NCBI GenBank assembly: GCA_002070355.1
Contig: MWDC01000001.1
Coordinates: 67,994 to 131,993, forward strand
Direction: 5' to 3'
DNA length: 64,000 nucleotides
Source: Parcubacteria group bacterium ADurb.Bin159
GTDB lineage: Bacteria > Patescibacteriota > Patescibacteriia > UBA2591 > MWDC01
This document shows, one piece after another, positions 14,128 to 56,367 of this stretch. Numbering within the stretch: the stretch's first letter is position 1; every line of letters begins with the position of its first letter. The notes beneath the pieces are model-generated. The model made no database searches, was not told where the DNA came from, and saw nothing but the letters and a program-made list of their open reading frames with translations. The position numbers and the translations under genes were made by a program.

Positions 14128-15873
14128 TTAAGCTAAACCTTCTTCTAATTTTTCTGGGGGAAGTTGAGAAAAGGCAATTTCTCTGTACACAGCACAATTA
14201 CGAAGAAGTTCTTTATGGGTTCCTTGCCCCACTATTTTTTTATCATCTATCACAATTATCTTGTCAGCGTCCATTATAGTACCAACTCTTTGGGTAACAA
14301 TAAGAATCGTCTTACCTTTTGCTTCTCGCCGAAGAGCACTTCTTAAAGCAGCATCTGTTTTAAAATCCAAGGCAGAGAAACTGTCATCAAAAAGATAAAG
14401 TTCAGGATTTTTTGCCAAGGCTCGAGCAATTGCCAAACGTTGCTTTTGCCCTCCAGAAAGATTAGCACCAGCCTGAGCAACAGAACTTTCAAATTTCTGA
14501 TCTAATTCTTTTATAAACTCAAAGGCCTGAGCCGTAGCCGCAGCCCGAAAAATTTCTTCTTGAGTAGCATTTGGAGTGCCATAGGCAATATTTTCTTTAA
14601 TTGTGCCAGAAAAAAGCATGGCTTTTTGAGAAACATAACCAATGCGTGCCCGTAAATCTTCTTGTTTCATATCGCGTATATCTACATCATCAACTAAAAT
14701 CTGCCCCTCTGTTACATCATAAAAACGAGGAATAAGATTAATAATAGTAGATTTACCGCTTCCCGTGCTGCCAATAAAAGCAGTGGTTTGGCCGGGAAGA
14801 GCAACAAAAGAAATATTATGTAAAACTGGTTCAACGGCTCCTGGATAGGCAAAAGTAACATTTCTAAATTCAACTTTTCCGCCTCGCTTAGGAGCTTTAA
14901 CGGGATTCACCGGGTCTTTTATTTGAACATCTGTTTCTAAAACTTCAACAATTCTATTAGCCGAAACAGAGGCTCTCGGAATAGCAATAAAAATAATTGA
15001 AATCATTAAAAAAGCGAATACTGCCTGCATTGAATATTGTAAAAACGCAAGCATGCTTCCAATTTGAAGAGTACCTAATTCAATTTGATGAGCGCCAAAC
15101 CAGACAATGGCTATCATCATAAAATTCATAATAAGCATCATCGCTGGTTGAAGTATTATCATTAAACGATTAACAAAAAGATTAAGCTGAGTAAGATCTT
15201 TATTCACTTTATTAAATCTTTCTTCTTCGTGCTTTTCTTTATTAAAAGCCCTTATTACTCTTAAACCGTTAAGGATTTCTCGGGTCACTAAATTTAATTT
15301 ATCTATTAATTTCTGAATCAGGCTAAATTTTGGGATAATTATTTTAAAAAGCAAGGCAATTACAAAAATTAAAGCAACAACGGCAACTGCCATAATCCAA
15401 GTCATCGAAGGAGCTAAGCGATAAGCCTTAATAGTAGCGAGAATACCTATTAGTGGAGCCATTATGGCTAACCGAAAAAACATTGTAAGTACCATCTGGA
15501 TTTGTTGCACATCATTGGTAGTACGAGTGATAAGAGAGGATGTTGAAAATTTATTAAATTCAACAAGAGAAAAACTTTCTACCTTAGTAAATACTGCATT
15601 TCGCAAGTTTTTAGCGAACCCCGCACCAATCCTTGAAGATAAATAATTCACGCCAACCGTCGCCAACCCACCACCGATGGCAACTAATATCATAATTAAA
15701 CCTGTTTGAAAAATTACTCCTGTATTCTTGCCCAGTATTCCTTGATTAATAATTTTTGCCATAAAATCGGGCAAGGCAAGACTTGCTGAAGCTTGGCAAT
15801 ATATAAAAATGGCCATTAAAATTAATTGCCAAATATATGGAGAAAGATATTTTAGAATTTTTGTTCCTGACAT
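14128..15873 (-). CDS. ABC transporter permease/ATPase, heterodimeric partner
   Basis: TMD plus NBD (GSTGSGKST, LSGGQKQRLAIARAL, LYLFDDSFSALD). Confidence 0.8.
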   Translation of the reverse strand: MSGTKILKYLSPYIWQLILMAIFIYCQASASLALPDFMAKIINQGILGKNTGVIFQTGLIMILVAIGGGLATVGVNYLSSRIGAGFAKNLRNAVFTKVESFSLVEFNKFSTSSLITRTTNDVQQIQMVLTMFFRLAIMAPLIGILATIKAYRLAPSMTWIMAVAVVALIFVIALLFKIIIPKFSLIQKLIDKLNLVTREILNGLRVIRAFNKEKHEEERFNKVNKDLTQLNLFVNRLMIILQPAMMLIMNFMMIAIVWFGAHQIELGTLQIGSMLAFLQYSMQAVFAFLMISIIFIAIPRASVSANRIVEVLETDVQIKDPVNPVKAPKRGGKVEFRNVTFAYPGAVEPVLHNISFVALPGQTTAFIGSTGSGKSTIINLIPRFYDVTEGQILVDDVDIRDMKQEDLRARIGYVSQKAMLFSGTIKENIAYGTPNATQEEIFRAAATAQAFEFIKELDQKFESSVAQAGANLSGGQKQRLAIARALAKNPELYLFDDSFSALDFKTDAALRSALRREAKGKTILIVTQRVGTIMDADKIIVIDDKKIVGQGTHKELLRNCAVYREIAFSQLPPEKLEEGLA

Positions 15874-16144
15874 TACAATAAATTAATCTATTAGTTTAAT
15901 AAAAATTTCTTTCTTCGTCAACAATGTTTATAGTAAAAAAATAACTCCACAAATAGTTCAGCGGTAGGCAAAAATTCGAAAAGTTATCCAAAAAGATTGC
16001 CTCGCTTCGCTTGGGCTCGGCAGAAGTAAATTCTCACCGCCTCAAATAAAACAAAAACAAAACCCTTGCCAAAATATGGTAAGGGGTCAATTTTCTCCGA
16101 ATTGTGAACAATATTAGAACAACTATTTCTTCTACTAATAATAA

Positions 16145-16237
16145 AAATTTAGGATCCACAACTCTAAATTAAAAAATTCGCCCTAAAAGCCAATGTTAAT
16201 GCGGTATTCTCGTAGTCTCTTTCTGTAAACTGTCTCC
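16145..16237 (+). repeat. Repeat family A, copy 4 (left flank of the defence island)
   Basis: aaatttaggatccacaactctaaatt...ccaatgttaatgcggtattctcgtagtctctttctgtaaactgtctcc. Confidence 0.7.
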
Positions 16238-16431
16238 AAATGCGTCCCCGAATGCAAAATTATAAAATTATTCTTCTGTTTTTTGTAAAATCAATCTCAT
16301 AATTAAACCTGATAAATATAAAAACGCTTCCGTATCTTCCAATTAAAAAGACAAAAGCAATGATAACAAAGATTTTCAAACCCCACTTAAAAGCTAATGT
16401 CTCAACAAAACCTTCTAAACCATAAAAACAA

Positions 16432-17124
16432 TTATTTCTTTTGATTAGTTGTATAATCACATTTCGGGTAATTAGAGCATCCGTAAAATTCTCCAAATTT
16501 GCCAGTTTTTTTCACTAAATTTCCGCCACAGCATGGGCAAATTCGAGACGCTTCTCTTGCCTTATCTTTATCCTTTTTAGCCATTTTGATATACCGAATA
16601 AGTTTGTATCCATCTATAAGTTCAATTGGCTTATCTTCAGCAAATTTCTCAGCTTCAAGTGTAAATTTATTTGTGGTAATAAAATATGCCTTTCCATTAG
16701 CAATATGGTCAGCCAAAGCACCATAGAAATCTCTGACATCGCCAACCGTTACCTCTGAGGTTATAAACTTTTTGCATTGAATGTAGCTTTTTACTCCGTC
16801 TTTTTCAATAATAACGTCAATGCCTCCGTCGTGCGATCCGCCGACTGCTTTAGATTTGTAGCCAAGCCGCGAAAACAAATCGGCAATATAATCCTCAAAT
16901 TCCGATGGCTTCATGCCACGAAGCCATTGCAATAGATCACGATCCGAACGCCATTTTTCTCCTTTTCTGAATTTTCGGCGAATATGCCAATTATCAATTT
17001 CCAAATTAAGCCAATAAAAGAATAATTTCATAACAACAATCGCCAATAAAACTGCCCAAAGCGGCCATAGCTTCCATAAAATCGGTAGTAAATTTTTAAT
17101 TATTTCCCAGAAATTAATTTGCAT
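16432..17124 (-). CDS. Membrane-anchored Mrr-cat (PD-(D/E)XK) restriction-endonuclease-like protein with a C-terminal topoisomerase-type C4 zinc ribbon
   Basis: N-terminal TM helices, then DLFSRLGYKSKAVGGSHDGGIDVIIEKDGVKSYIQCKKF (Mrr_cat signature D..D..QCK), then CPCCGG...CSNYPKC. Confidence 0.65.
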   Translation of the reverse strand: MQINFWEIIKNLLPILWKLWPLWAVLLAIVVMKLFFYWLNLEIDNWHIRRKFRKGEKWRSDRDLLQWLRGMKPSEFEDYIADLFSRLGYKSKAVGGSHDGGIDVIIEKDGVKSYIQCKKFITSEVTVGDVRDFYGALADHIANGKAYFITTNKFTLEAEKFAEDKPIELIDGYKLIRYIKMAKKDKDKAREASRICPCCGGNLVKKTGKFGEFYGCSNYPKCDYTTNQKK

Positions 17125-17130
17125 ATAATT

Positions 17131-20100
17131 TTAGTTTATAATCTCCTCCAATCTCCAAAAAGTGCTTCCACCTTCACGAATCAAATCGTCGATAAGTTTA
17201 TAAGTATCACCTTTTGTTTCGGCATTTTCATAGAGAGTCTTAATTGCCCCAAACCATTCCTCGTCATACATAAATGGCATGCGCATTTTACCACCTCGCA
17301 CATCACCTTCAAGTAAAGAAAGACGGGCAATCTCCAACGTATCTTTAGGTGCAGCTTTAGCCAATTCATTGATAGACTTAGTGAGAGCGTAATCCCATTC
17401 CAAAACACCCTTAGTTTTTTCTAAGGTCGCTTTTATTTGTCCAGCTAACCAGGCTGGTTCAAAGATTTTTTTCTCAAGATTCATCCAAAATCCAAACGCA
17501 ACAAATAGCTTCGGGTCGTCATAATTCTTAAGCAACCATTCCCAAAATTCAGTTAATCTTTTTTTAATTGCTGGGTCTTTTTTCAACTGCTCATTTACAC
17601 GATCATCATCGCCAGAAATGAACATCCGCCCGATAAAACTGATAAACTTGCTTTGCCGTTCAACATCTCGCTTCCAGAATTTCTTGAAAAGAGAATGATC
17701 AAACCCGAATTTTTCATGATAGACAACAAACGCCAACGCCAAATGAACAGCTATTCCTTCCTTTAGTTCTTTGAAATATTTGCGTTTTGAGTCCTCGTTG
17801 CCAGTCAAACTTAAGCCACGCTCATATAATTTTTGGAATTCTTGATCAAAGAATATTTCCTCATAAAGATTATTAGCAAGATATCCTTCCCAAGCAGCAA
17901 GATAAAGGTGTTTTTTAGTCGCTTCTTCTGGAAAAATTTGAGTCAAAAGCCCATGTATCCAATCTCTGTCACGGAAGTAGAAAGATGGTAGATAATATCC
18001 AAACATAAACATTAAGGCACGAGTATCTTCTTTTTTTAAGACTCTCTCATAGAGCTCCTTAATGTCTACGCTAATTTTAATCTTATCATCTTTTGAAAAT
18101 TGCTTTCCGTCTTGGTAAACAAACAACACAAAAGCCTGAAACGCCCGACCACGCACCGAATTAATCGCCATCGTAAACGGATCACTAACATAATTTTCTT
18201 CCTTATCGCCAGGGGAATGGGTCTTTATCGTCGCTGTTCCTAGCTCTTCGTCTTGTGGTTCTGGATCGGGGTATACTAAAAGATAGCTGAGAATCTCGAA
18301 AAGCTGACTGCGGTATTTGGAGAAATCTATAAGAATTTTACCGTCGTTTTCACTCAATAATTCTTGCAGGACATCCGTCATCACCGAGTGCACTCCAGTC
18401 CAACTCAAAAGCCATGCGTCAAACTTCTCTCGTTCCCTGATTTTATGGTTAAAGGCTTTTGCAATACCCGAATCCTTAATAGCAATAAAAACTTCTATCA
18501 GTTTATCCCACTGGATATCTGCCGCCTTTGTTTTGTCAGCACGTATAGCTTCTTGAATGCCTCGAAAAAACGAGTAAGTATAATGCTCGTCGAGAACATC
18601 CCTCTCAAAAAATAAACTGGCGTTCTGGATATAATCCTGTAATCGCTTAGCAATATCAACACGCAATTGTTCCTCTACGCCTTTAGCATTTAAGGGATTC
18701 AAAAAATCATCACTTGTGTTCTCTTTGCTCAAAGCTTCTGGCTTCCAGTCATTTCTTAATTTTTTGGCAATGTCAGCAATGGAAAGTTTACTAAATTCCT
18801 CTTGTGAAACTGCAGCTCTTGGTTTTACAAAACCGCTCACTATTTTTCCAATGGACGGTTCGGGTTCAAAAGTAGGATCACATTTTTTACCGAATATTTT
18901 TTCACAATCTTCTTTTTCTTCTGAAGTCAAAGAGTCATAAATACTGGAAAGAATCTGCCAGCCATCGCGCCTATACCATTGTTCTTCTTTTTTATCTTCA
19001 CGACTTTGTCCAAAATGCTTAAAGACATTCGATACATATTCACGCTGATAATCGAAATTGAGGACATTAAAGCTCTGTTTAAGGGCTTTCTTGTACTCTG
19101 TTCCAGATTCAATCTCATAATAATGTTTACCATCCTCCATCACCTCAAATAATTTAAAAAAGGACGCCTGTAATTCTGCCTGAAAAGCAACGGGACACAA
19201 ACTCAAAACAAAAAGACGCAGTCGCCACATCAACCTGCTTTCTGGTAAGGTTTGAATATATTTCTTATAAACCTCTCTGACCAATTCTGATTTGTCACAA
19301 TTATTGCCAATTAGTCTTTGACTGAGTGCTTTAATGGTCACTACTAAATCTTTGACGTTTTCTTGATCTGAATAATGTTTTTCATCGCCCAATTCCAAAG
19401 AAAAAAAATCAACATCAAAAAGATAAAAAGGGTCATGAATCGGAAATACTTCATTCTTCTCGGCGTCTTCGCCCAAACGCACGATTGCCGCCATCGTTCT
19501 TGTTGTAATCTCTAATGCTTTTTCAAGATATTGATCGCCTACAGCCACTAAATACTCAAAGACTTTCGTGTAAGAAAGGTCTGTGAAATAAAAAGGATTA
19601 TCCGATGGATAATCACGAGAAGTTGGTTTTGTTTCTTCTTTTGCTCTCACAGTAAGCACTGCTTCGGCAAGGACCAAGATATTCTCATAATCCTTAGCAG
19701 CGGCAAGTGTTTGGAATATTTTTTTATAATCAAATCCCCATTGATTAAATACGCTCATCAACCGCACCCAACCATCATCACGAATTTTCGGCACTATTCT
19801 CGCTAACTGCTCCGCTGGCAGAGAACTGCAAATTCTCAAAAATTGATCGACAATTTCGGGATTAAAATTATCTTTTGGGATAGAAACCGAAAGCATAATA
19901 TCTACCACTTCTTTCGCTTTTTTCTCCGCTATTCTTACAAGATAATTCAGTTCTGGGGTTGTTCGATATCCATATCTCGTTGGATCGTCGACTTTCTGTT
20001 TAATCACATCTAAGAGCCCATTATTCCAAAGCCAATCAAGCCAATTCTCATCTGCTTTTGTAAAAAAATATTGTCGTGCATCAAGATTTAAACCAATAAG

Positions 20101-20145
20101 TTCTCGAATTTTCTCTGGATCAAATTTTGCTGATTGTTTATCCAT
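17131..20145 (-). CDS. Large (1004 aa) hypothetical protein; no ATPase, nuclease or other recognisable motif
   Basis: Long uninterrupted ORF packed 5-6 bp from its neighbours in the R-M/Mrr operon. Predicted mostly alpha-helical. No Walker A. Confidence 0.6.
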   Translation of the reverse strand: MDKQSAKFDPEKIRELIGLNLDARQYFFTKADENWLDWLWNNGLLDVIKQKVDDPTRYGYRTTPELNYLVRIAEKKAKEVVDIMLSVSIPKDNFNPEIVDQFLRICSSLPAEQLARIVPKIRDDGWVRLMSVFNQWGFDYKKIFQTLAAAKDYENILVLAEAVLTVRAKEETKPTSRDYPSDNPFYFTDLSYTKVFEYLVAVGDQYLEKALEITTRTMAAIVRLGEDAEKNEVFPIHDPFYLFDVDFFSLELGDEKHYSDQENVKDLVVTIKALSQRLIGNNCDKSELVREVYKKYIQTLPESRLMWRLRLFVLSLCPVAFQAELQASFFKLFEVMEDGKHYYEIESGTEYKKALKQSFNVLNFDYQREYVSNVFKHFGQSREDKKEEQWYRRDGWQILSSIYDSLTSEEKEDCEKIFGKKCDPTFEPEPSIGKIVSGFVKPRAAVSQEEFSKLSIADIAKKLRNDWKPEALSKENTSDDFLNPLNAKGVEEQLRVDIAKRLQDYIQNASLFFERDVLDEHYTYSFFRGIQEAIRADKTKAADIQWDKLIEVFIAIKDSGIAKAFNHKIREREKFDAWLLSWTGVHSVMTDVLQELLSENDGKILIDFSKYRSQLFEILSYLLVYPDPEPQDEELGTATIKTHSPGDKEENYVSDPFTMAINSVRGRAFQAFVLFVYQDGKQFSKDDKIKISVDIKELYERVLKKEDTRALMFMFGYYLPSFYFRDRDWIHGLLTQIFPEEATKKHLYLAAWEGYLANNLYEEIFFDQEFQKLYERGLSLTGNEDSKRKYFKELKEGIAVHLALAFVVYHEKFGFDHSLFKKFWKRDVERQSKFISFIGRMFISGDDDRVNEQLKKDPAIKKRLTEFWEWLLKNYDDPKLFVAFGFWMNLEKKIFEPAWLAGQIKATLEKTKGVLEWDYALTKSINELAKAAPKDTLEIARLSLLEGDVRGGKMRMPFMYDEEWFGAIKTLYENAETKGDTYKLIDDLIREGGSTFWRLEEIIN

Positions 20146-20150
20146 ATTAC

Positions 20151-20756
20151 TTATTTACCTCCATTTATATCTTCTATTAGCTGAGGATTTATTCTCAAAA
20201 CCTCATCAAGCATTTGATGCACATCAAGCTGCCTTGTCAATGCCTTATTCATAATTTTTTCAAACTCCACTAAAAGTTTTTCAAACTCAACCTTATTAAA
20301 AGAAGAAAAATCAAAATTTTTATCCCATTGAGGATCAACTCCATGATGCGTTATATCATTAAGTTTTTTCCACAGAGGTTCTACTTTACTGCTATAGAAA
20401 TTTTTATCAAAACTTTCATTAGAACTTTCATCAAAATTTTTATCAACCGTTACAGAGCCAAAATTTTTAAACGCATCCATTCTCTTACTTGAAACTTGTT
20501 TCACCTGAATACTTAAGAATGGATAAAGAATCTCTCGTAAGGAGTTTGCCGCTTGGGCAATACGATCGGGATTACTTTTACATTCTTCCCTAATAGCAAA
20601 AACGGCACCTCGAAACATATCTGAAGGCTTTATTTTTAGTCCTCCTCGCTCATGCCACTCATCTAGGCGTCTACATAAATTTTCTTGTCCATCGGTTAAA
20701 CGCACGGGTGGGAGAGCATTATTTCCTATAGATTGTAGTGATGCATCACCGCCCAT
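20151..20756 (-). CDS. Hypothetical 201-aa protein with a DKNF(D/Y)xSS triple repeat
   Basis: ORF-track protein with 3-5 bp spacing to the restriction endonuclease upstream and the 1004-aa ORF downstream. Confidence 0.5.
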   Translation of the reverse strand: MGGDASLQSIGNNALPPVRLTDGQENLCRRLDEWHERGGLKIKPSDMFRGAVFAIREECKSNPDRIAQAANSLREILYPFLSIQVKQVSSKRMDAFKNFGSVTVDKNFDESSNESFDKNFYSSKVEPLWKKLNDITHHGVDPQWDKNFDFSSFNKVEFEKLLVEFEKIMNKALTRQLDVHQMLDEVLRINPQLIEDINGGK

Positions 20757-20759
20757 AAA

Positions 20760-21665
20760 TTATATATCTCTCAAGATATTCCTTAAAAAACCTTTTTTGA
20801 TGAAATTAATATTTAAGACATAATCCATTTGTTCAATTGCCTTCCTGATTTGATTTTGTCCTTGTCGCCAGCCATTTCCATCGGTAATCCAAACAAATTG
20901 CCAGCCACTATTTTGGAGCTCTCTTTGCCGATTTATGTAGGCATCAACAATCTCTTGAGGTTTTGAACCCTGCCCGCTGTAAAAATTAACTTCCATTGAT
21001 AGAAGTTTTGTTCCTTTTTTGATCGCAAAATCGGGAGTTCTATACCGGAGTTTCTTCGGGATTTTTACACCGCGTTCTTCGAATTTACTGAACTTCCCCT
21101 TAGGGAATATCTCAATATTCTTAAATTCTTTGGTGATATTTTGAAGTTCTTCCTCTACCACTTTTTCCATAAAACTACCACTTCGATTCTTACGTGCATT
21201 GCTATCCAAACCTACTTCAACCCCTAAGAGATAATCGTTAAGAACTCGAATGATTTTGAATAACTCTTGGATACCACTTTTTTTTACAAATTGAATAAAT
21301 TTCTTGATGTCACTTGGGGTTAAATCTTTTGAACAATCAAAACAACATACTTGATTTTTGCTTATATCCTCTAGTACATCAAATTTCTCATCACGCATTG
21401 CAACAAGAAGTGGTAAAACCCTTGCTGTCTTAGGGTATTCTGTTAAAATTTTCTCTAAATCTTTATCAAAATTTTTGGATTGAGTAAGTGTTCCCAAAAT
21501 TCCAATTTCAACTTTGTATTTCTCTACATTTGATTTAACCTTTTTCCAATTTACAAAAAAATCGTAAGTGCGATTAGTAGATAATAGTGAGCCAATAAAT
21601 GCTTCGTTAATCTGCTCAATATTAGTAAAACCAAAAAATGATTTATATGTTTGTATTTTTGCCAT
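20760..21665 (-). CDS. Type II restriction endonuclease, DpnII/MboI family (predicted GATC specificity)
   Basis: GVEVGLDSNARKNRSG and EVNFYSGQGSKP...WITDGNGW...LNINF align with R.DpnII motifs recalled from memory. Confidence 0.7.
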   Translation of the reverse strand: MAKIQTYKSFFGFTNIEQINEAFIGSLLSTNRTYDFFVNWKKVKSNVEKYKVEIGILGTLTQSKNFDKDLEKILTEYPKTARVLPLLVAMRDEKFDVLEDISKNQVCCFDCSKDLTPSDIKKFIQFVKKSGIQELFKIIRVLNDYLLGVEVGLDSNARKNRSGSFMEKVVEEELQNITKEFKNIEIFPKGKFSKFEERGVKIPKKLRYRTPDFAIKKGTKLLSMEVNFYSGQGSKPQEIVDAYINRQRELQNSGWQFVWITDGNGWRQGQNQIRKAIEQMDYVLNINFIKKGFLRNILRDI

Positions 21666-21670
21666 ATTGC

Positions 21671-22513
21671 TTAAATTAATTTAATAAACATTTGCTTGCG
21701 CTTAATTAAGTCTTTGAGTCGCTTTTTTGAAAGTTCAAGATATTTTTTCTCATTATCAATCCCTATAAATTTTCTATCGTATAGAATAGCAACTAAACCA
21801 GTAGTAGAGCTCCCTGCGAAAGGATCGAGTATTATGTCGCCAGGATTTGTGCTTGACAGAATAATTCTTTTCAAAAGCTCCATTGGCTTTTGTGTGGGGT
21901 GTTTACCAAATATTTTTTCTTCTGGCTTGGGAGTCCCTATTGCCCACACCGAACGCATTTGTTTATTTTGCCGATGGATAAGGTCGTTTCTAAACGCACG
22001 CATCTGCTCGTAATTGAACACGTGCTTTGCTTTCTTTTCTTTACGTGCCCACAATAATGTTTCGTGGCTGGCAGTAAAATAACGGCAACTTAAATTGGGA
22101 GAAGCATTGGGTTTATACCAGGAGATATCATTTAAGATATGATAACCGCTTAATTGAAGTGCGTAACCACATTGATAAATTGAGTGATAAGTCCCACTAA
22201 TCCAAATTGTACCGTAAGGTTTAAGAACTCGACGGCAAGCTTGAACCCAAGTAATATGAAAATCTAAATCCTTTTGAAAACCTTTGCTTTTGTCCCAATC
22301 TCCCTTATTAACACTTACACGTCTGCCAGCGTGAACGCTAAAACCACCATTAGAAAGATTATACGGTGGATCAGCAAAAATCATATCAATCGAATTGTCT
22401 GGAAGCTGTTTCAAAATCGACAGATAATCTGAACAGTATAAAACAAAATTACCTTCAGAAAAATAAGGTTTTTTCTTGATAGAAGATAGAACTTTTTGAG
22501 AATTAGTTTCCAT
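21671..22513 (-). CDS. Beta-class N6-adenine DNA methyltransferase, M.DpnA (DpnIIB)-like
   Basis: Motif IV IFADPPYNLSNGG precedes motif I DPFAGSSTTG. Strong similarity to M.DpnA through ...NLSCRYFT...KHPTQKP.... Confidence 0.8.
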   Translation of the reverse strand: METNSQKVLSSIKKKPYFSEGNFVLYCSDYLSILKQLPDNSIDMIFADPPYNLSNGGFSVHAGRRVSVNKGDWDKSKGFQKDLDFHITWVQACRRVLKPYGTIWISGTYHSIYQCGYALQLSGYHILNDISWYKPNASPNLSCRYFTASHETLLWARKEKKAKHVFNYEQMRAFRNDLIHRQNKQMRSVWAIGTPKPEEKIFGKHPTQKPMELLKRIILSSTNPGDIILDPFAGSSTTGLVAILYDRKFIGIDNEKKYLELSKKRLKDLIKRKQMFIKLI

Positions 22514-22698
22514 AAATATGTCTTTTTTTCAACTTGGATTTATTAGTTTATTTTTTCCTGTCTACTGTTTATTATAACAAATAATTCCTAAAAATATAAT
22601 TAAAGAGGCCTTAATTTTTGAAAAATTATTGAATTGTCTTACTGATTAATTTCATTTATATTGCTTTTAACTTTTCCGTGGTGGTCGTATAACTTTAT

Positions 22699-22725
22699 AT
22701 TATAGAACTTCATAAAGTTCGTCAA
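22699..22725 (-). promoter_or_regulatory. Candidate promoter of the defence operon (minus strand TTGACG-N15-TATAAT)
   Basis: Same promoter-like sequence as 10381-10407; lies in the extended copy of repeat A upstream of the MTase gene. Confidence 0.35.
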
Positions 22726-22751
22726 TATCTAATAATGCATAAAAAATAAAA

Positions 22752-22843
22752 AAATAGGGCTCACAACCCTAAATTAAAAAATTCGTCTTAACAGCCAATG
22801 TTAATGCGGTATTCTCGTAATCTCTTTTTGAGGACTGTCCCCA
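22752..22843 (+). repeat. Repeat family A, copy 5 (right flank of the defence island); the extension at 22660-22751 is shared with copy 2.
   Basis: aaatagggctcacaaccctaaatt...ccaatgttaatgcggtattctcgtaatctctttttgaggactgtcccc. Confidence 0.7.
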
Positions 22844-22919
22844 AATGCCAAATCTAAGCCCAATCATTTCAGCTTTGATTGGGCTTTATTTTTTGGCTCT
22901 AAAATGATAAAATTAATTT

Positions 22920-23684
22920 ATGAATATGCCGAAAGTAAAATTTACTGACATTCCATTATCCAAAGAAACTGATTGGATGTATGGTTTTTTGTTCAAAAAT
23001 GAATGGGATTGGGGAAGATATATTTTAAAAAAACATCCTAAAATTAAAAAAGTTTTTTCTTATAAGACGGAAGCAGAACGAGTTAATTTTTTAAGAAATT
23101 ATATAATTCAATTTAAAAAAGATAATCAAGAACTAATAGAAAAAAGTAAAACGGAATACCAAGAAGTATGGAAGGAAATGGAAAAAGATTTTTTTATTAT
23201 TCTGTCAGAAATTTTAAAAATTGACTGGCCTCAAAATAGAAAAGTGATAAAAGCAATGCTCTCGATTAATCCAATTTGCCCTCGTTTTTTAAACGATTGG
23301 AGTTTTTCTATTTTCTATAATTATAAAAAGATAAGTTATGCAATGGAAGTAATTATGCATGAATGCTGTCATTTTTTATATTTTGAAAAATGGAAAAAAG
23401 TTTTTCCAAAAACAAACCCAAAAAAGTTTGAGGCACCATGCTTGGAATGGCATTTAAGTGAAATTTTAGCACCAATTATTTTAAATGACCTTAGGATTAA
23501 AAAATTATTGGGACGAAAAGCAGATTTTTACGAAGAACATAAAAAAATAAAAATTGGGAATAAAACCGTTCCTGAATATTTTAACGATTTATACAAAAAA
23601 AATAATATAGATAAAAATTTTGACGAATTCCTAAAAGAATCTTATAAGGCAATCAAAAAGAATAAGGTGCTATTTGAAATATAA
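22920..23684 (+). CDS. Hypothetical protein with an HExxH-like motif (MHECCH)
   Basis: 254-aa ORF; possible metallopeptidase-like zinc site. Otherwise uncharacterised. Confidence 0.4.
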   Translation: MNMPKVKFTDIPLSKETDWMYGFLFKNEWDWGRYILKKHPKIKKVFSYKTEAERVNFLRNYIIQFKKDNQELIEKSKTEYQEVWKEMEKDFFIILSEILKIDWPQNRKVIKAMLSINPICPRFLNDWSFSIFYNYKKISYAMEVIMHECCHFLYFEKWKKVFPKTNPKKFEAPCLEWHLSEILAPIILNDLRIKKLLGRKADFYEEHKKIKIGNKTVPEYFNDLYKKNNIDKNFDEFLKESYKAIKKNKVLFEI

Positions 23685-24229: not shown

Positions 24230-24733
24230 TTAATTGATTAGGAATTTTAAGAATTTCGGTTTAATCTCTTCTTTCGGTTTAGTCTCTCCTGGCTTTATTC
24301 TTTGGGCTTCTGCTATCCTATTATTTGAAATGCCTTCGCCTTCTTGAACTTTTCCAGAAAATCGTCCTTCGTAATCTCTGATGATTCTTTGGAAGGCGCT
24401 TTTTCCTTCAATTCTGGTTTCTCCGCCGACGAATTCTCCTTTTCCTTTTGTTGATTTAATGATTGTTGTTTCATACTTTTGTTTTAATTTATTTATATTT
24501 TCAGCGAGATTCGACCCTGAGTCAAAAATGACTGCCTTATTCTCGCTAACAATTGTTCTATATTGTAAACCAACATCATCAAGTGCTTTTCTTAAATTTT
24601 CCATTGTCTTTATTTCAGAAATTTCTATTGCATAAAGAGTATCAATCCCGGCTCCATCTACTATAAATGGAATAACAGATTTTTGATATGAAACTAACCC
24701 CTCCTTGCTGCAGAATATTTTAATGTCTCCCAA
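24230..24733 (-). CDS. Hypothetical protein
   Basis: 167-aa ORF between the two copies of hairpin repeat C. No recognisable motif. Confidence 0.35.
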   Translation of the reverse strand: MGDIKIFCSKEGLVSYQKSVIPFIVDGAGIDTLYAIEISEIKTMENLRKALDDVGLQYRTIVSENKAVIFDSGSNLAENINKLKQKYETTIIKSTKGKGEFVGGETRIEGKSAFQRIIRDYEGRFSGKVQEGEGISNNRIAEAQRIKPGETKPKEEIKPKFLKFLIN

Positions 24734-56204: not shown

Positions 56205-56294
56205 AATTTAGATTATAACAAAAAAGAAAAAAAGAAAAAGGGCAACTTAATGTTGCTCTTATTAAATACAATGTTTCCCCTCTTTTTTGTTTAG

Positions 56295-56367
56295 AGGGGT
56301 TGGCTGGAATCGAACCAGCATGAGCAGGCTTTCGCGCCTACTGCGTTGACCACTCCGCCACAACCCC
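56295..56367 (-). tRNA. tRNA-like gene with canonical acceptor, D and T arms but a non-canonical (6-nt) anticodon loop; isotype undetermined
   Basis: Acceptor GGGGUUG/CAACCCC, T-arm GCUGG-UUCGAUU-CCAGC. The central hairpin UAGGC-GCGAAA-GCCUG does not give a standard 7-nt loop. Confidence 0.5.

Follow-up and report, generated by a model that had tools for sequence, protein, structure and literature searches.

Which partner, if any, does a small Mrr-type nuclease gene serve when it closes an array of defence genes? The question is posed by a stretch of 64,000 nucleotides (nt) from the genome of Parcubacteria group bacterium ADurb.Bin159 (contig MWDC01000001.1, positions 67,994 to 131,993 of the forward strand; this whole stretch is the window in the following), in which five minus-strand genes separated by gaps of 3 to 6 nt encode, in this order, a methyltransferase, a DpnII endonuclease, a protein of 201 amino acids (aa), a protein of 1004 aa, and the Mrr-type nuclease (16432..17124, minus strand). 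An earlier note on this DNA had described the nuclease gene as the terminal gene of a defence operon, and it is indeed the last of five co-directional genes in a defence array that opens with a DpnII-type pair. The function that the note derived from co-operonic placement with a restriction-modification (R-M) system is not supported, because a two-gene Dsr1-like module lies between the R-M pair and the Mrr gene and because Mrr homologues trail many unrelated systems. The array is a stack of three separable modules, i.e., a DpnII-type R-M pair, a Dsr1/Avs7-like sensor pair, and the Mrr gene, and the latter is, to judge from sequence and gene context, probably an autonomous, horizontally mobile nuclease of defence islands (we put this reading at about 60%).

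Architecture of the Mrr-type nuclease

The Mrr gene is an intact open reading frame (ORF) of 230 aa with an ATG start. Residues 68-178 (codons 16591..16923, minus strand) match the Pfam family Mrr_cat (PF04471) over model positions 1-114 of 115 with an E value of 8.1e-29 and 100.5 bits (cut-off, 21 bits), and residues 194-230 (codons 16435..16545, minus strand) match Zn_ribbon_Top1 (PF01396) with an E value of 1.8e-15 and 56.9 bits (cut-off, 32 bits). Two related models, Mrr_cat_2 and NA-iREase1, gave weaker matches. Among 20 aligned Mrr sequences, which are 59-91% identical to the window protein, E77, D99, D103, Q116, C117, and K118 are invariant and reproduce the D...QxK signature of Mrr, the ribbon cysteines C196, C216, and C222 are likewise invariant, and C199, the remaining member of the Cys4 set, is kept in at least 90%.

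The AlphaFold2 model (mean pLDDT, 78.8) consists of helices 5-18 and 20-56, an alpha/beta core (61-170), a linker helix (172-189), and two beta-hairpins of the ribbon, and the order of strands and helices in the core agrees with the alpha/beta restriction-endonuclease-like fold. Foldseek searches of the Protein Data Bank (PDB) placed the core nearest to MspJI (E 2e-6), AF1548 (E 1e-5), AspBHI, and NucS/EndoMS, with further matches to the CARF nucleases Cdn1/Can2 and to Hjc. Profile searches of PDB sequences returned AF1548 (1y88) for the core and, for the ribbon, the zinc ribbons at the C terminus of Escherichia coli topoisomerase I (4rul). Profile, residues, and fold are thus all those of a PD-(D/E)XK nuclease of the Mrr_cat type, and the Mrr_cat identity, the catalytic residues, and the C-terminal topoisomerase-type zinc ribbon that had been read from the letters of the window in the earlier note all stand.

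The note had also described N-terminal transmembrane (TM) helices. A membrane anchor was found, but it is a single one: Kyte-Doolittle hydropathy reveals one hydrophobic stretch of about 27 residues (approximately 13-39; codons 17008..17088, minus strand; 19-mer maximum, 2.03), within which W20, P21, and W23 are conserved among the 20 aligned sequences. It is followed by a juxtamembrane helix rich in lysine and arginine (K/R), which contributes 8 such residues in positions 40-65 compared with 2 before the stretch, and anchor and K/R pattern recur in 19 homologues according to their hydropathy. The positively charged side of a membrane segment faces the cytoplasm (positive-inside rule), and from the K/R excess behind the anchor both the nuclease and the ribbon are predicted to be cytoplasmic.

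Residues 1-60 are accordingly occupied by a membrane helix and a basic linker in place of a reader domain, and neither Pfam nor NCBIfam returned an Mrr_N winged helix or an SRA-like modification reader anywhere in the protein. The protein could nevertheless be a type IV, modification-dependent enzyme that cuts foreign-modified invader DNA as a backup to the DpnII-type R-M pair. Its catalytic domain is of the Mrr/MspJI/AspBHI type, the best Foldseek matches are MspJI and AspBHI, and the best match in the defence-system database PADLOC is mREase_IV (E 1.8e-18). The mrr gene of E. coli is located beside R-M genes, too. The match to mREase_IV, however, comprises model positions 163-290 only, i.e., the catalytic domain, beside which the protein has a membrane helix and a generic zinc ribbon. 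The statement of the note that the architecture is typical of modification-dependent nucleases therefore applies to the catalytic domain and not to the protein as a whole. Moreover, the same catalytic domain serves as an effector outside type IV systems, since PADLOC also matches the window protein to ZorD of Zorya (E 1.9e-11) and LmuA of Lamassu (E 1.3e-5). In comparison with E. coli Mrr and the type IV/IIM enzymes MspJI and AspBHI, the window protein thus shares the catalytic fold, the D...QxK signature, the lack of a cognate methyltransferase, and the proximity to R-M genes, but it has a membrane anchor and a Top1-type ribbon where they have an Mrr_N or SRA-like reader.

Gene neighbourhoods of Mrr homologues

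The relation between the Mrr gene and its neighbours was assessed from the genomic surroundings of its homologues. Using one genome per species, 80 loci with Mrr homologues were collected, nearly all from metagenome-assembled genomes (MAGs) of Patescibacteria (loci are labelled with L-numbers and homologous proteins with P-numbers), and the genes upstream of Mrr were surveyed in 65 species-level loci by neighbour clustering and by Pfam and PADLOC scans. In about 65 genomes of Patescibacteria, close homologues of 57-90% identity trail quite different defence genes, among them R-M systems of types I, IIG, and III. Protein P0007 (81%; locus L007) is preceded by genes for a serine recombinase, a helix-turn-helix protein, a type III Mod/Res system, an OLD-type ATPase-TOPRIM protein, and a DUF2130 protein, whereas P0043 (69%; L009) follows a PLD-SNF2 protein, a DUF3800 protein, an MmeI/Eco57I-type enzyme, and a fused 1157-aa protein that unites the counterparts of the 201-aa and 1004-aa proteins of the window, and P0030 (73%; L011) has an EcoRI-type methylase and GmrSD in its surroundings. 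The upstream families are correspondingly heterogeneous: a MazG-like protein together with a Schlafen-group-3 helicase in 6-9 loci, ResIII in 6, DUF2779/Cas4-like proteins in 5-7, and type I HsdR, Eco57I/PglX-like, NERD, PDDEXK_1, and TerB_N proteins in 2 each, and the Dsr1-like sensor in 2 or 3, in addition to a few housekeeping enzymes (adh_short, amidohydrolase, and transaldolase). A constant partner of the Mrr gene was not present among the upstream genes of the 65 loci.

The most recurrent upstream arrangement deserves mention in its own right. In it, the gene for a MazG-like pyrophosphatase (about 115 aa) and, behind it, that for a Schlafen-group-3-type helicase (about 620-770 aa) lie directly upstream of Mrr (L045, positions 178-2384, and 8 other loci, e.g., L016, L032, L049, and L056). 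DUF2779/Cas4-like proteins of about 500 aa are likewise encoded directly upstream of Mrr genes, and both the pair and these genes may be defence modules in their own right.

Methyltransferases are similarly inconstant. Within six genes on either side of Mrr, in the approximately 70 loci in which the Mrr gene itself was called, an N6_N4 methyltransferase occurs in 11, HsdM in 5, and an Eco57I-type enzyme in 4, so that no methyltransferase family is constantly linked to Mrr, as expected of a nuclease without a cognate methyltransferase. This outcome has two sides for a type IV enzyme. The lack of a constantly associated methyltransferase in the 65 loci is what a methyltransferase-free enzyme would show, but the coexistence of close homologues with methyltransferases of the N6_N4, HsdM, Eco57I/MmeI, and EcoRI types speaks against a broad cutting of m6A- or m4C-modified DNA. 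Taken together with the missing reader, a type IV enzyme backing up the R-M pair appears unlikely to us. The special link to a methylating R-M system that the earlier note drew is not a feature of the family either: matches to the DpnII family, i.e., endonucleases of the type found in the window, are present in just 2 of the 80 loci, namely, L013, which has the same arrangement as the window, and L038. The co-occurrence of Mrr with a DpnII R-M system is hence not conserved. The other target considered in the note, invader DNA at the membrane, is possible.

The compact packing of these genomes also has to be taken into account. Neighbouring genes in the collected loci share their direction in 77% of cases, and 47% of the co-directional neighbours are at most 30 nt apart; the Mrr gene is co-directional with its upstream gene in 59 of 65 loci (P = 0.007), a modest excess, and in 31 of these 59 the distance is at most 30 nt, which is the background level. 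Being the terminal gene of an operon is therefore a property that barely rises above the background of a compact genome, and a tight co-operonic placement in such genomes does not imply a functional link. The possibility that an integration hotspot has the Mrr gene as its fixed anchor was also rejected, as the downstream genes are as variable as the upstream ones.

Modules of the five-gene array

The first two genes of the array form a type II R-M pair according to Pfam and PADLOC. The N6_N4 (beta-class) DNA methyltransferase (21671..22513, minus strand) was recognized by N6_N4_Mtase (E 2.1e-59) and MTase_II (E 1.7e-98), and the DpnII-family type II restriction endonuclease (20760..21665, minus strand) by DpnII (E 3.8e-80) and REase_II (E 4.3e-70), respectively. 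Outside the array, the window contains 61 GATC sites compared with 130-141 expected, an approximately 2.2-fold under-representation. Within the array (16432-22513), 19 sites were observed versus 21-27 expected, i.e., no depletion, and the gene for the 1004-aa protein contains 11 versus 11.6. Double counting as the source of the depletion was ruled out by a separate count and by Markov expectations. These numbers are consistent with a chromosome that has long been exposed to GATC restriction and with the array, or at least a part of it, having arrived more recently.

The fourth gene (17131..20145, minus strand) encodes a Dsr1/Avs7-type helical-repeat sensor of 1004 aa without a SIR2 domain. It matches the PADLOC Dsr1 model over positions 588-1197 of 1227 (E 7.7e-19), its 84% identical orthologue in L013 covers positions 460-1207, and the matched region is the non-sirtuin sensor part of Dsr1. 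The sensor did not match any Pfam family. Its 386 homologues fall into two length classes of about 1000 aa and about 1180 aa, and the long forms owe their additional length to an N-terminal segment with homology to the 201-aa protein encoded directly upstream in the window (20151..20756, minus strand; BLASTP E 4e-26 and 5e-26). In 80 metagenomic loci, a small gene of 175-240 codons precedes almost every unfused sensor gene, and the products are either members of the 201-aa family or unrelated proteins. Since the 201-aa segment is fused to the sensor in the long forms and a small gene precedes the unfused ones, the 201-aa and 1004-aa genes constitute one two-gene unit. In this unit the effector is placed first and the sensor second, as in Dsr1.

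The 201-aa protein is a candidate for a HEPN-like effector. It carries the motif R175-x4-H180 near its C terminus, and in its family N62, D64, H137, H138, Q176, D178, and H180 are invariant, and R74 and R175 are kept in at least 90%. The structural model is all-helical (pLDDT, 81.5), with weak matches to HEPN-like folds, which makes the assignment plausible, albeit weakly supported. Pfam returned nothing for this protein, nor for any of 45 small genes that precede sensor homologues; a match to pP_pnuc_1 (E 0.006) was below the cut-off and disregarded, and no PDB sequence was matched by the profile of either the sensor or the 201-aa protein. Two close sensor homologues of 78-80% identity are preceded by a different, 205-aa protein (L157, 7318-7935; L093, 7315-7932). 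A relationship of the latter to the 201-aa protein was considered and dismissed (hhalign probability, 1%; no Pfam match), which suggests that the sensor has an exchangeable effector slot. The gene order in L157 is type III Mod/Res, 205-aa gene, sensor, and Mrr homologue.

A 2026 preprint describes the Avs7/Dsr1 sensor as a bilobed array of tetratricopeptide repeats (TPRs) that recognizes the major capsid protein of phages and that is combined with many N-terminal effectors, a HEPN-like RNase among them (PMC12803255). The variable N-terminal or upstream effectors of the window-type sensors correspond to this reported modularity (PMC12803255). The module of the window differs by the absence of SIR2 and by an effector encoded by a separate 201-aa gene that has an Rx4H motif and no Pfam family.

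Could the Mrr protein be the nuclease effector of this module, i.e., the third gene of a Dsr1-like system that is activated once the 1004-aa sensor recognizes a phage protein? The two genes are separated by 6 nt, the window sensor lacks the SIR2 effector of Dsr1, and pairing with nuclease effectors is known for sensors of the Avs7/Dsr1 type (PMC12803255). In addition, Mrr genes follow sensor homologues of 84% (L013), 78-79% (L094 and L157), 40% (L009/L014), and 24% (L065) identity. The converse test, which was based on 57 sensor homologues with a gene downstream, gave a different picture: the gene directly downstream encodes Mrr_cat in 1 of 57 cases, no family recurs more than twice in this position, and in L157 the Mrr homologue lies two genes downstream of the sensor. 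Full-length Mrr homologues downstream of a sensor were detected by tblastn in L094 and L157 only, the match in L165 being a 31-residue piece of the ribbon, and sensor homologues of 70-80% identity without a downstream Mrr gene are found in L093 and L095-L098. Looked at from the nuclease, 3 of 65 Mrr loci encode a Dsr1-like sensor at most two genes upstream, about 60 of the 65 have no sensor nearby, and the closest homologue on a long contig (81%; L007) trails the type III R-M/OLD/DUF2130 cluster. The co-occurrence is thus not conserved, as it should be for a component of the sensor system. Finally, the effector slot of the family is N-terminal or upstream and is taken in the window by the 201-aa protein, so that, with this slot occupied, the two-gene module has no need of the Mrr protein. 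An effector function of Mrr in this system is largely refuted and seems highly improbable.

A terminator-like hairpin, read on the minus strand as CCCUUACC...GGCAAGGG with a U-rich tract (approximately 16045..16085), is located about 350 nt past the Mrr stop codon; its folding energy of -13.6 kcal/mol corresponds to a z value of only -1.27 and is not statistically distinctive. A terminator scan of positions 15700-23200 found 8 candidates versus 4.3 expected, which is not clearly above the shuffled background, and reported the 16045-16085 stem on the plus strand only. The hairpin is therefore a possible end of the transcription unit, for which the evidence is weak. A scan of the same region for promoter consensus sequences yielded 31 hits versus 25.7 in the shuffled background, without a clear excess. 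The Mrr gene overlaps at its 3' end with an ORF of 78 aa that has a hydrophobic stretch (16260-16496, minus strand) and that one public assembly lists as a gene. This ORF is conserved in the same species only; it was rejected as a partner gene and is probably no gene at all. Between the array and tRNA-Asn/rpoD there are two ORFs without a Pfam family, one of 254 aa in a stretch of low GC content (26%; 22920-23684, plus strand) and one of 167 aa (24230-24733, minus strand), which may be further cargo of the island. Far outside the array, ARAGORN predicted a tRNA with a four-base anticodon (cgaa) and no assigned identity (56294-56367, minus strand).

Distribution, analogues, and possible mode of action

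The nuclease belongs to a large family. A word-indexed search returned 928 homologous clusters at E <= 1e-3, many of them 60-90% identical to the window protein, and an exhaustive search of representatives at 50% identity returned 21,562 clusters at E <= 1e-3, of which 3,949 reached E <= 1e-10. An N-terminal hydrophobic segment is present in 85 of the best 100 representatives of 190-320 aa, a C-terminal Cys4 pattern in 78, and the combination in 64; two or more hydrophobic segments are present in 36, and some homologues of 185-187 aa lack the zinc ribbon. Matches of 47-69% identity are attributed to Saccharibacteria, Uhrbacteria, Omnitrophota, Desulfonatronospira, and Micavibrio MAGs and, within the archaea, to Pacearchaeota and Helarchaeota. 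The distribution of the family across phyla is patchy. Relatives with Mrr_cat and ribbon (identity of <=36%, annotated as "restriction endonuclease") are encoded in 623 plasmid records. One of the plasmid homologues, from Vibrio cholerae, is 34% identical over residues 24-227 and combines two hydrophobic segments with Mrr_cat and a Zn ribbon. The 8 weak matches in phage genomes indicate that the family is not noticeably phage borne.

Longer proteins of 340-360 aa with Mrr_cat and a Top1 zinc ribbon are located in a conserved backbone region of IncH-type MOBH plasmids of enterobacteria, e.g., of Klebsiella and Citrobacter (L173, 5566-6588; L174, 5557-6636), near lepB, ter-like, and tra genes. 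On an IncH-type plasmid of Klebsiella the gene adjoins parB.

Such contexts, together with the membrane anchor, bring a role outside defence into consideration, namely, the processing of membrane-imported DNA for nucleotide salvage or, alternatively, mobile-element maintenance or entry exclusion. The salvage idea is based on the absence of nucleotide synthesis in Patescibacteria. A role outside defence is in line with a zinc ribbon of the single-stranded-DNA-binding kind seen in topoisomerase I, with the occasional housekeeping neighbours (the genes downstream in L007, and adh_short, amidohydrolase, and transaldolase upstream of other homologues), and with the relatives in the IncH-type plasmid backbone, one of them next to parB. 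On the other hand, the prediction places the nuclease domain in the cytoplasm, the family is patchily distributed and not lineage-wide, defence genes are its commonest neighbours, and competence genes were not seen in the neighbourhoods inspected. A role outside defence fits the gene contexts less well than a role in defence, and we consider it very unlikely.

Several points weigh against the reading of the Mrr gene as an autonomous, mobile defence nuclease. Three independent co-occurrences with a Dsr1-like sensor (the window and L013; L009, which equals L014, at 40% sensor identity; and L065 at 24%) exceed what entirely unrelated genes might give. The gene calls in the homologue loci are simple longest-ORF calls, and errors in the binning of MAGs may inflate the apparent taxonomic spread. 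DNA as the substrate, a role in defence, and the trigger are all inferred for this family. Furthermore, in the tiny cells of Patescibacteria the chromosome is always near the membrane, and a discrimination that is based on space alone would be risky.

The closest validated analogue of the nuclease, by description, is Epona, a single-gene cassette with Mrr_cat and two TM segments ("holin-like") from the chromosomal integron of V. cholerae, which protected E. coli against phage (10.1101/2024.07.02.601686). Both are small proteins with N-terminal TM segment(s) and Mrr_cat that are encoded as portable cassettes among defence genes, and the window protein shares this architecture with its hydrophobic segment (Kyte-Doolittle 2.03) and Mrr_cat domain. 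In a comparison that is restricted to the published description, the differences are the two TM segments of Epona versus one hydrophobic segment here, a zinc ribbon that is not mentioned for Epona, and the hosts, i.e., Vibrio versus Patescibacteria. ZorD, LmuA, and Avs/NLR-like proteins also use a homologous nuclease domain as a plug-in, DNA-degrading effector of defence, but there the domain either forms one polypeptide with a helicase, SMC, or STAND partner or is always encoded together with it, whereas the Mrr protein of the window is small, free-standing, and without a constant partner.

In the mechanism that we propose, the product of the Mrr gene would be anchored in the cytoplasmic membrane by one N-terminal helix, with a short N terminus outside and, on the inside, the K/R-rich linker and all that follows it. 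The PD-(D/E)XK domain would cut DNA at the cytoplasmic face, with the Top1-type ribbon providing DNA binding. The protein would act independently of both the DpnII R-M pair and the Dsr1-like sensor/effector pair, and the three modules would simply share one compact transcription unit, the usual arrangement in defence islands. Self and non-self would most likely be told apart by the place or time of activity: the protein could act on DNA entering at the membrane or be switched on by a perturbation of the membrane linked to infection. An activation by membrane perturbation has been proposed for other fusions of TM segments and nucleases. Given the absence of a reader domain and of a constant methyltransferase partner, control by location or activation would be the most economical model. 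The full version of this idea, a reader-less, membrane-tethered restriction nuclease that distinguishes self from invader not by sequence or modification but by where and when DNA enters, or by membrane perturbation, and that adds, as a portable "last gene," a second line of attack behind any defence cassette of Patescibacteria, is speculative and in our view quite unlikely.

The Mrr protein of the window is an ordinary member of a common and widespread family of membrane-anchored Mrr nucleases and not a dedicated R-M partner. As thousands of genomes and plasmids already contain members of this family under the annotation "restriction endonuclease," the finding changes little in this respect. 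Within the locus, the split Dsr1/Avs7-like sensor with its unclassified, possibly HEPN-like 201-aa effector is less ordinary than the Mrr gene. The combination of a membrane anchor, an Mrr core, and a zinc ribbon nevertheless defines an abundant, uncharacterized, and portable family, and with Epona as an experimentally validated analogue, by description, it would be a cheap target for a defence assay.

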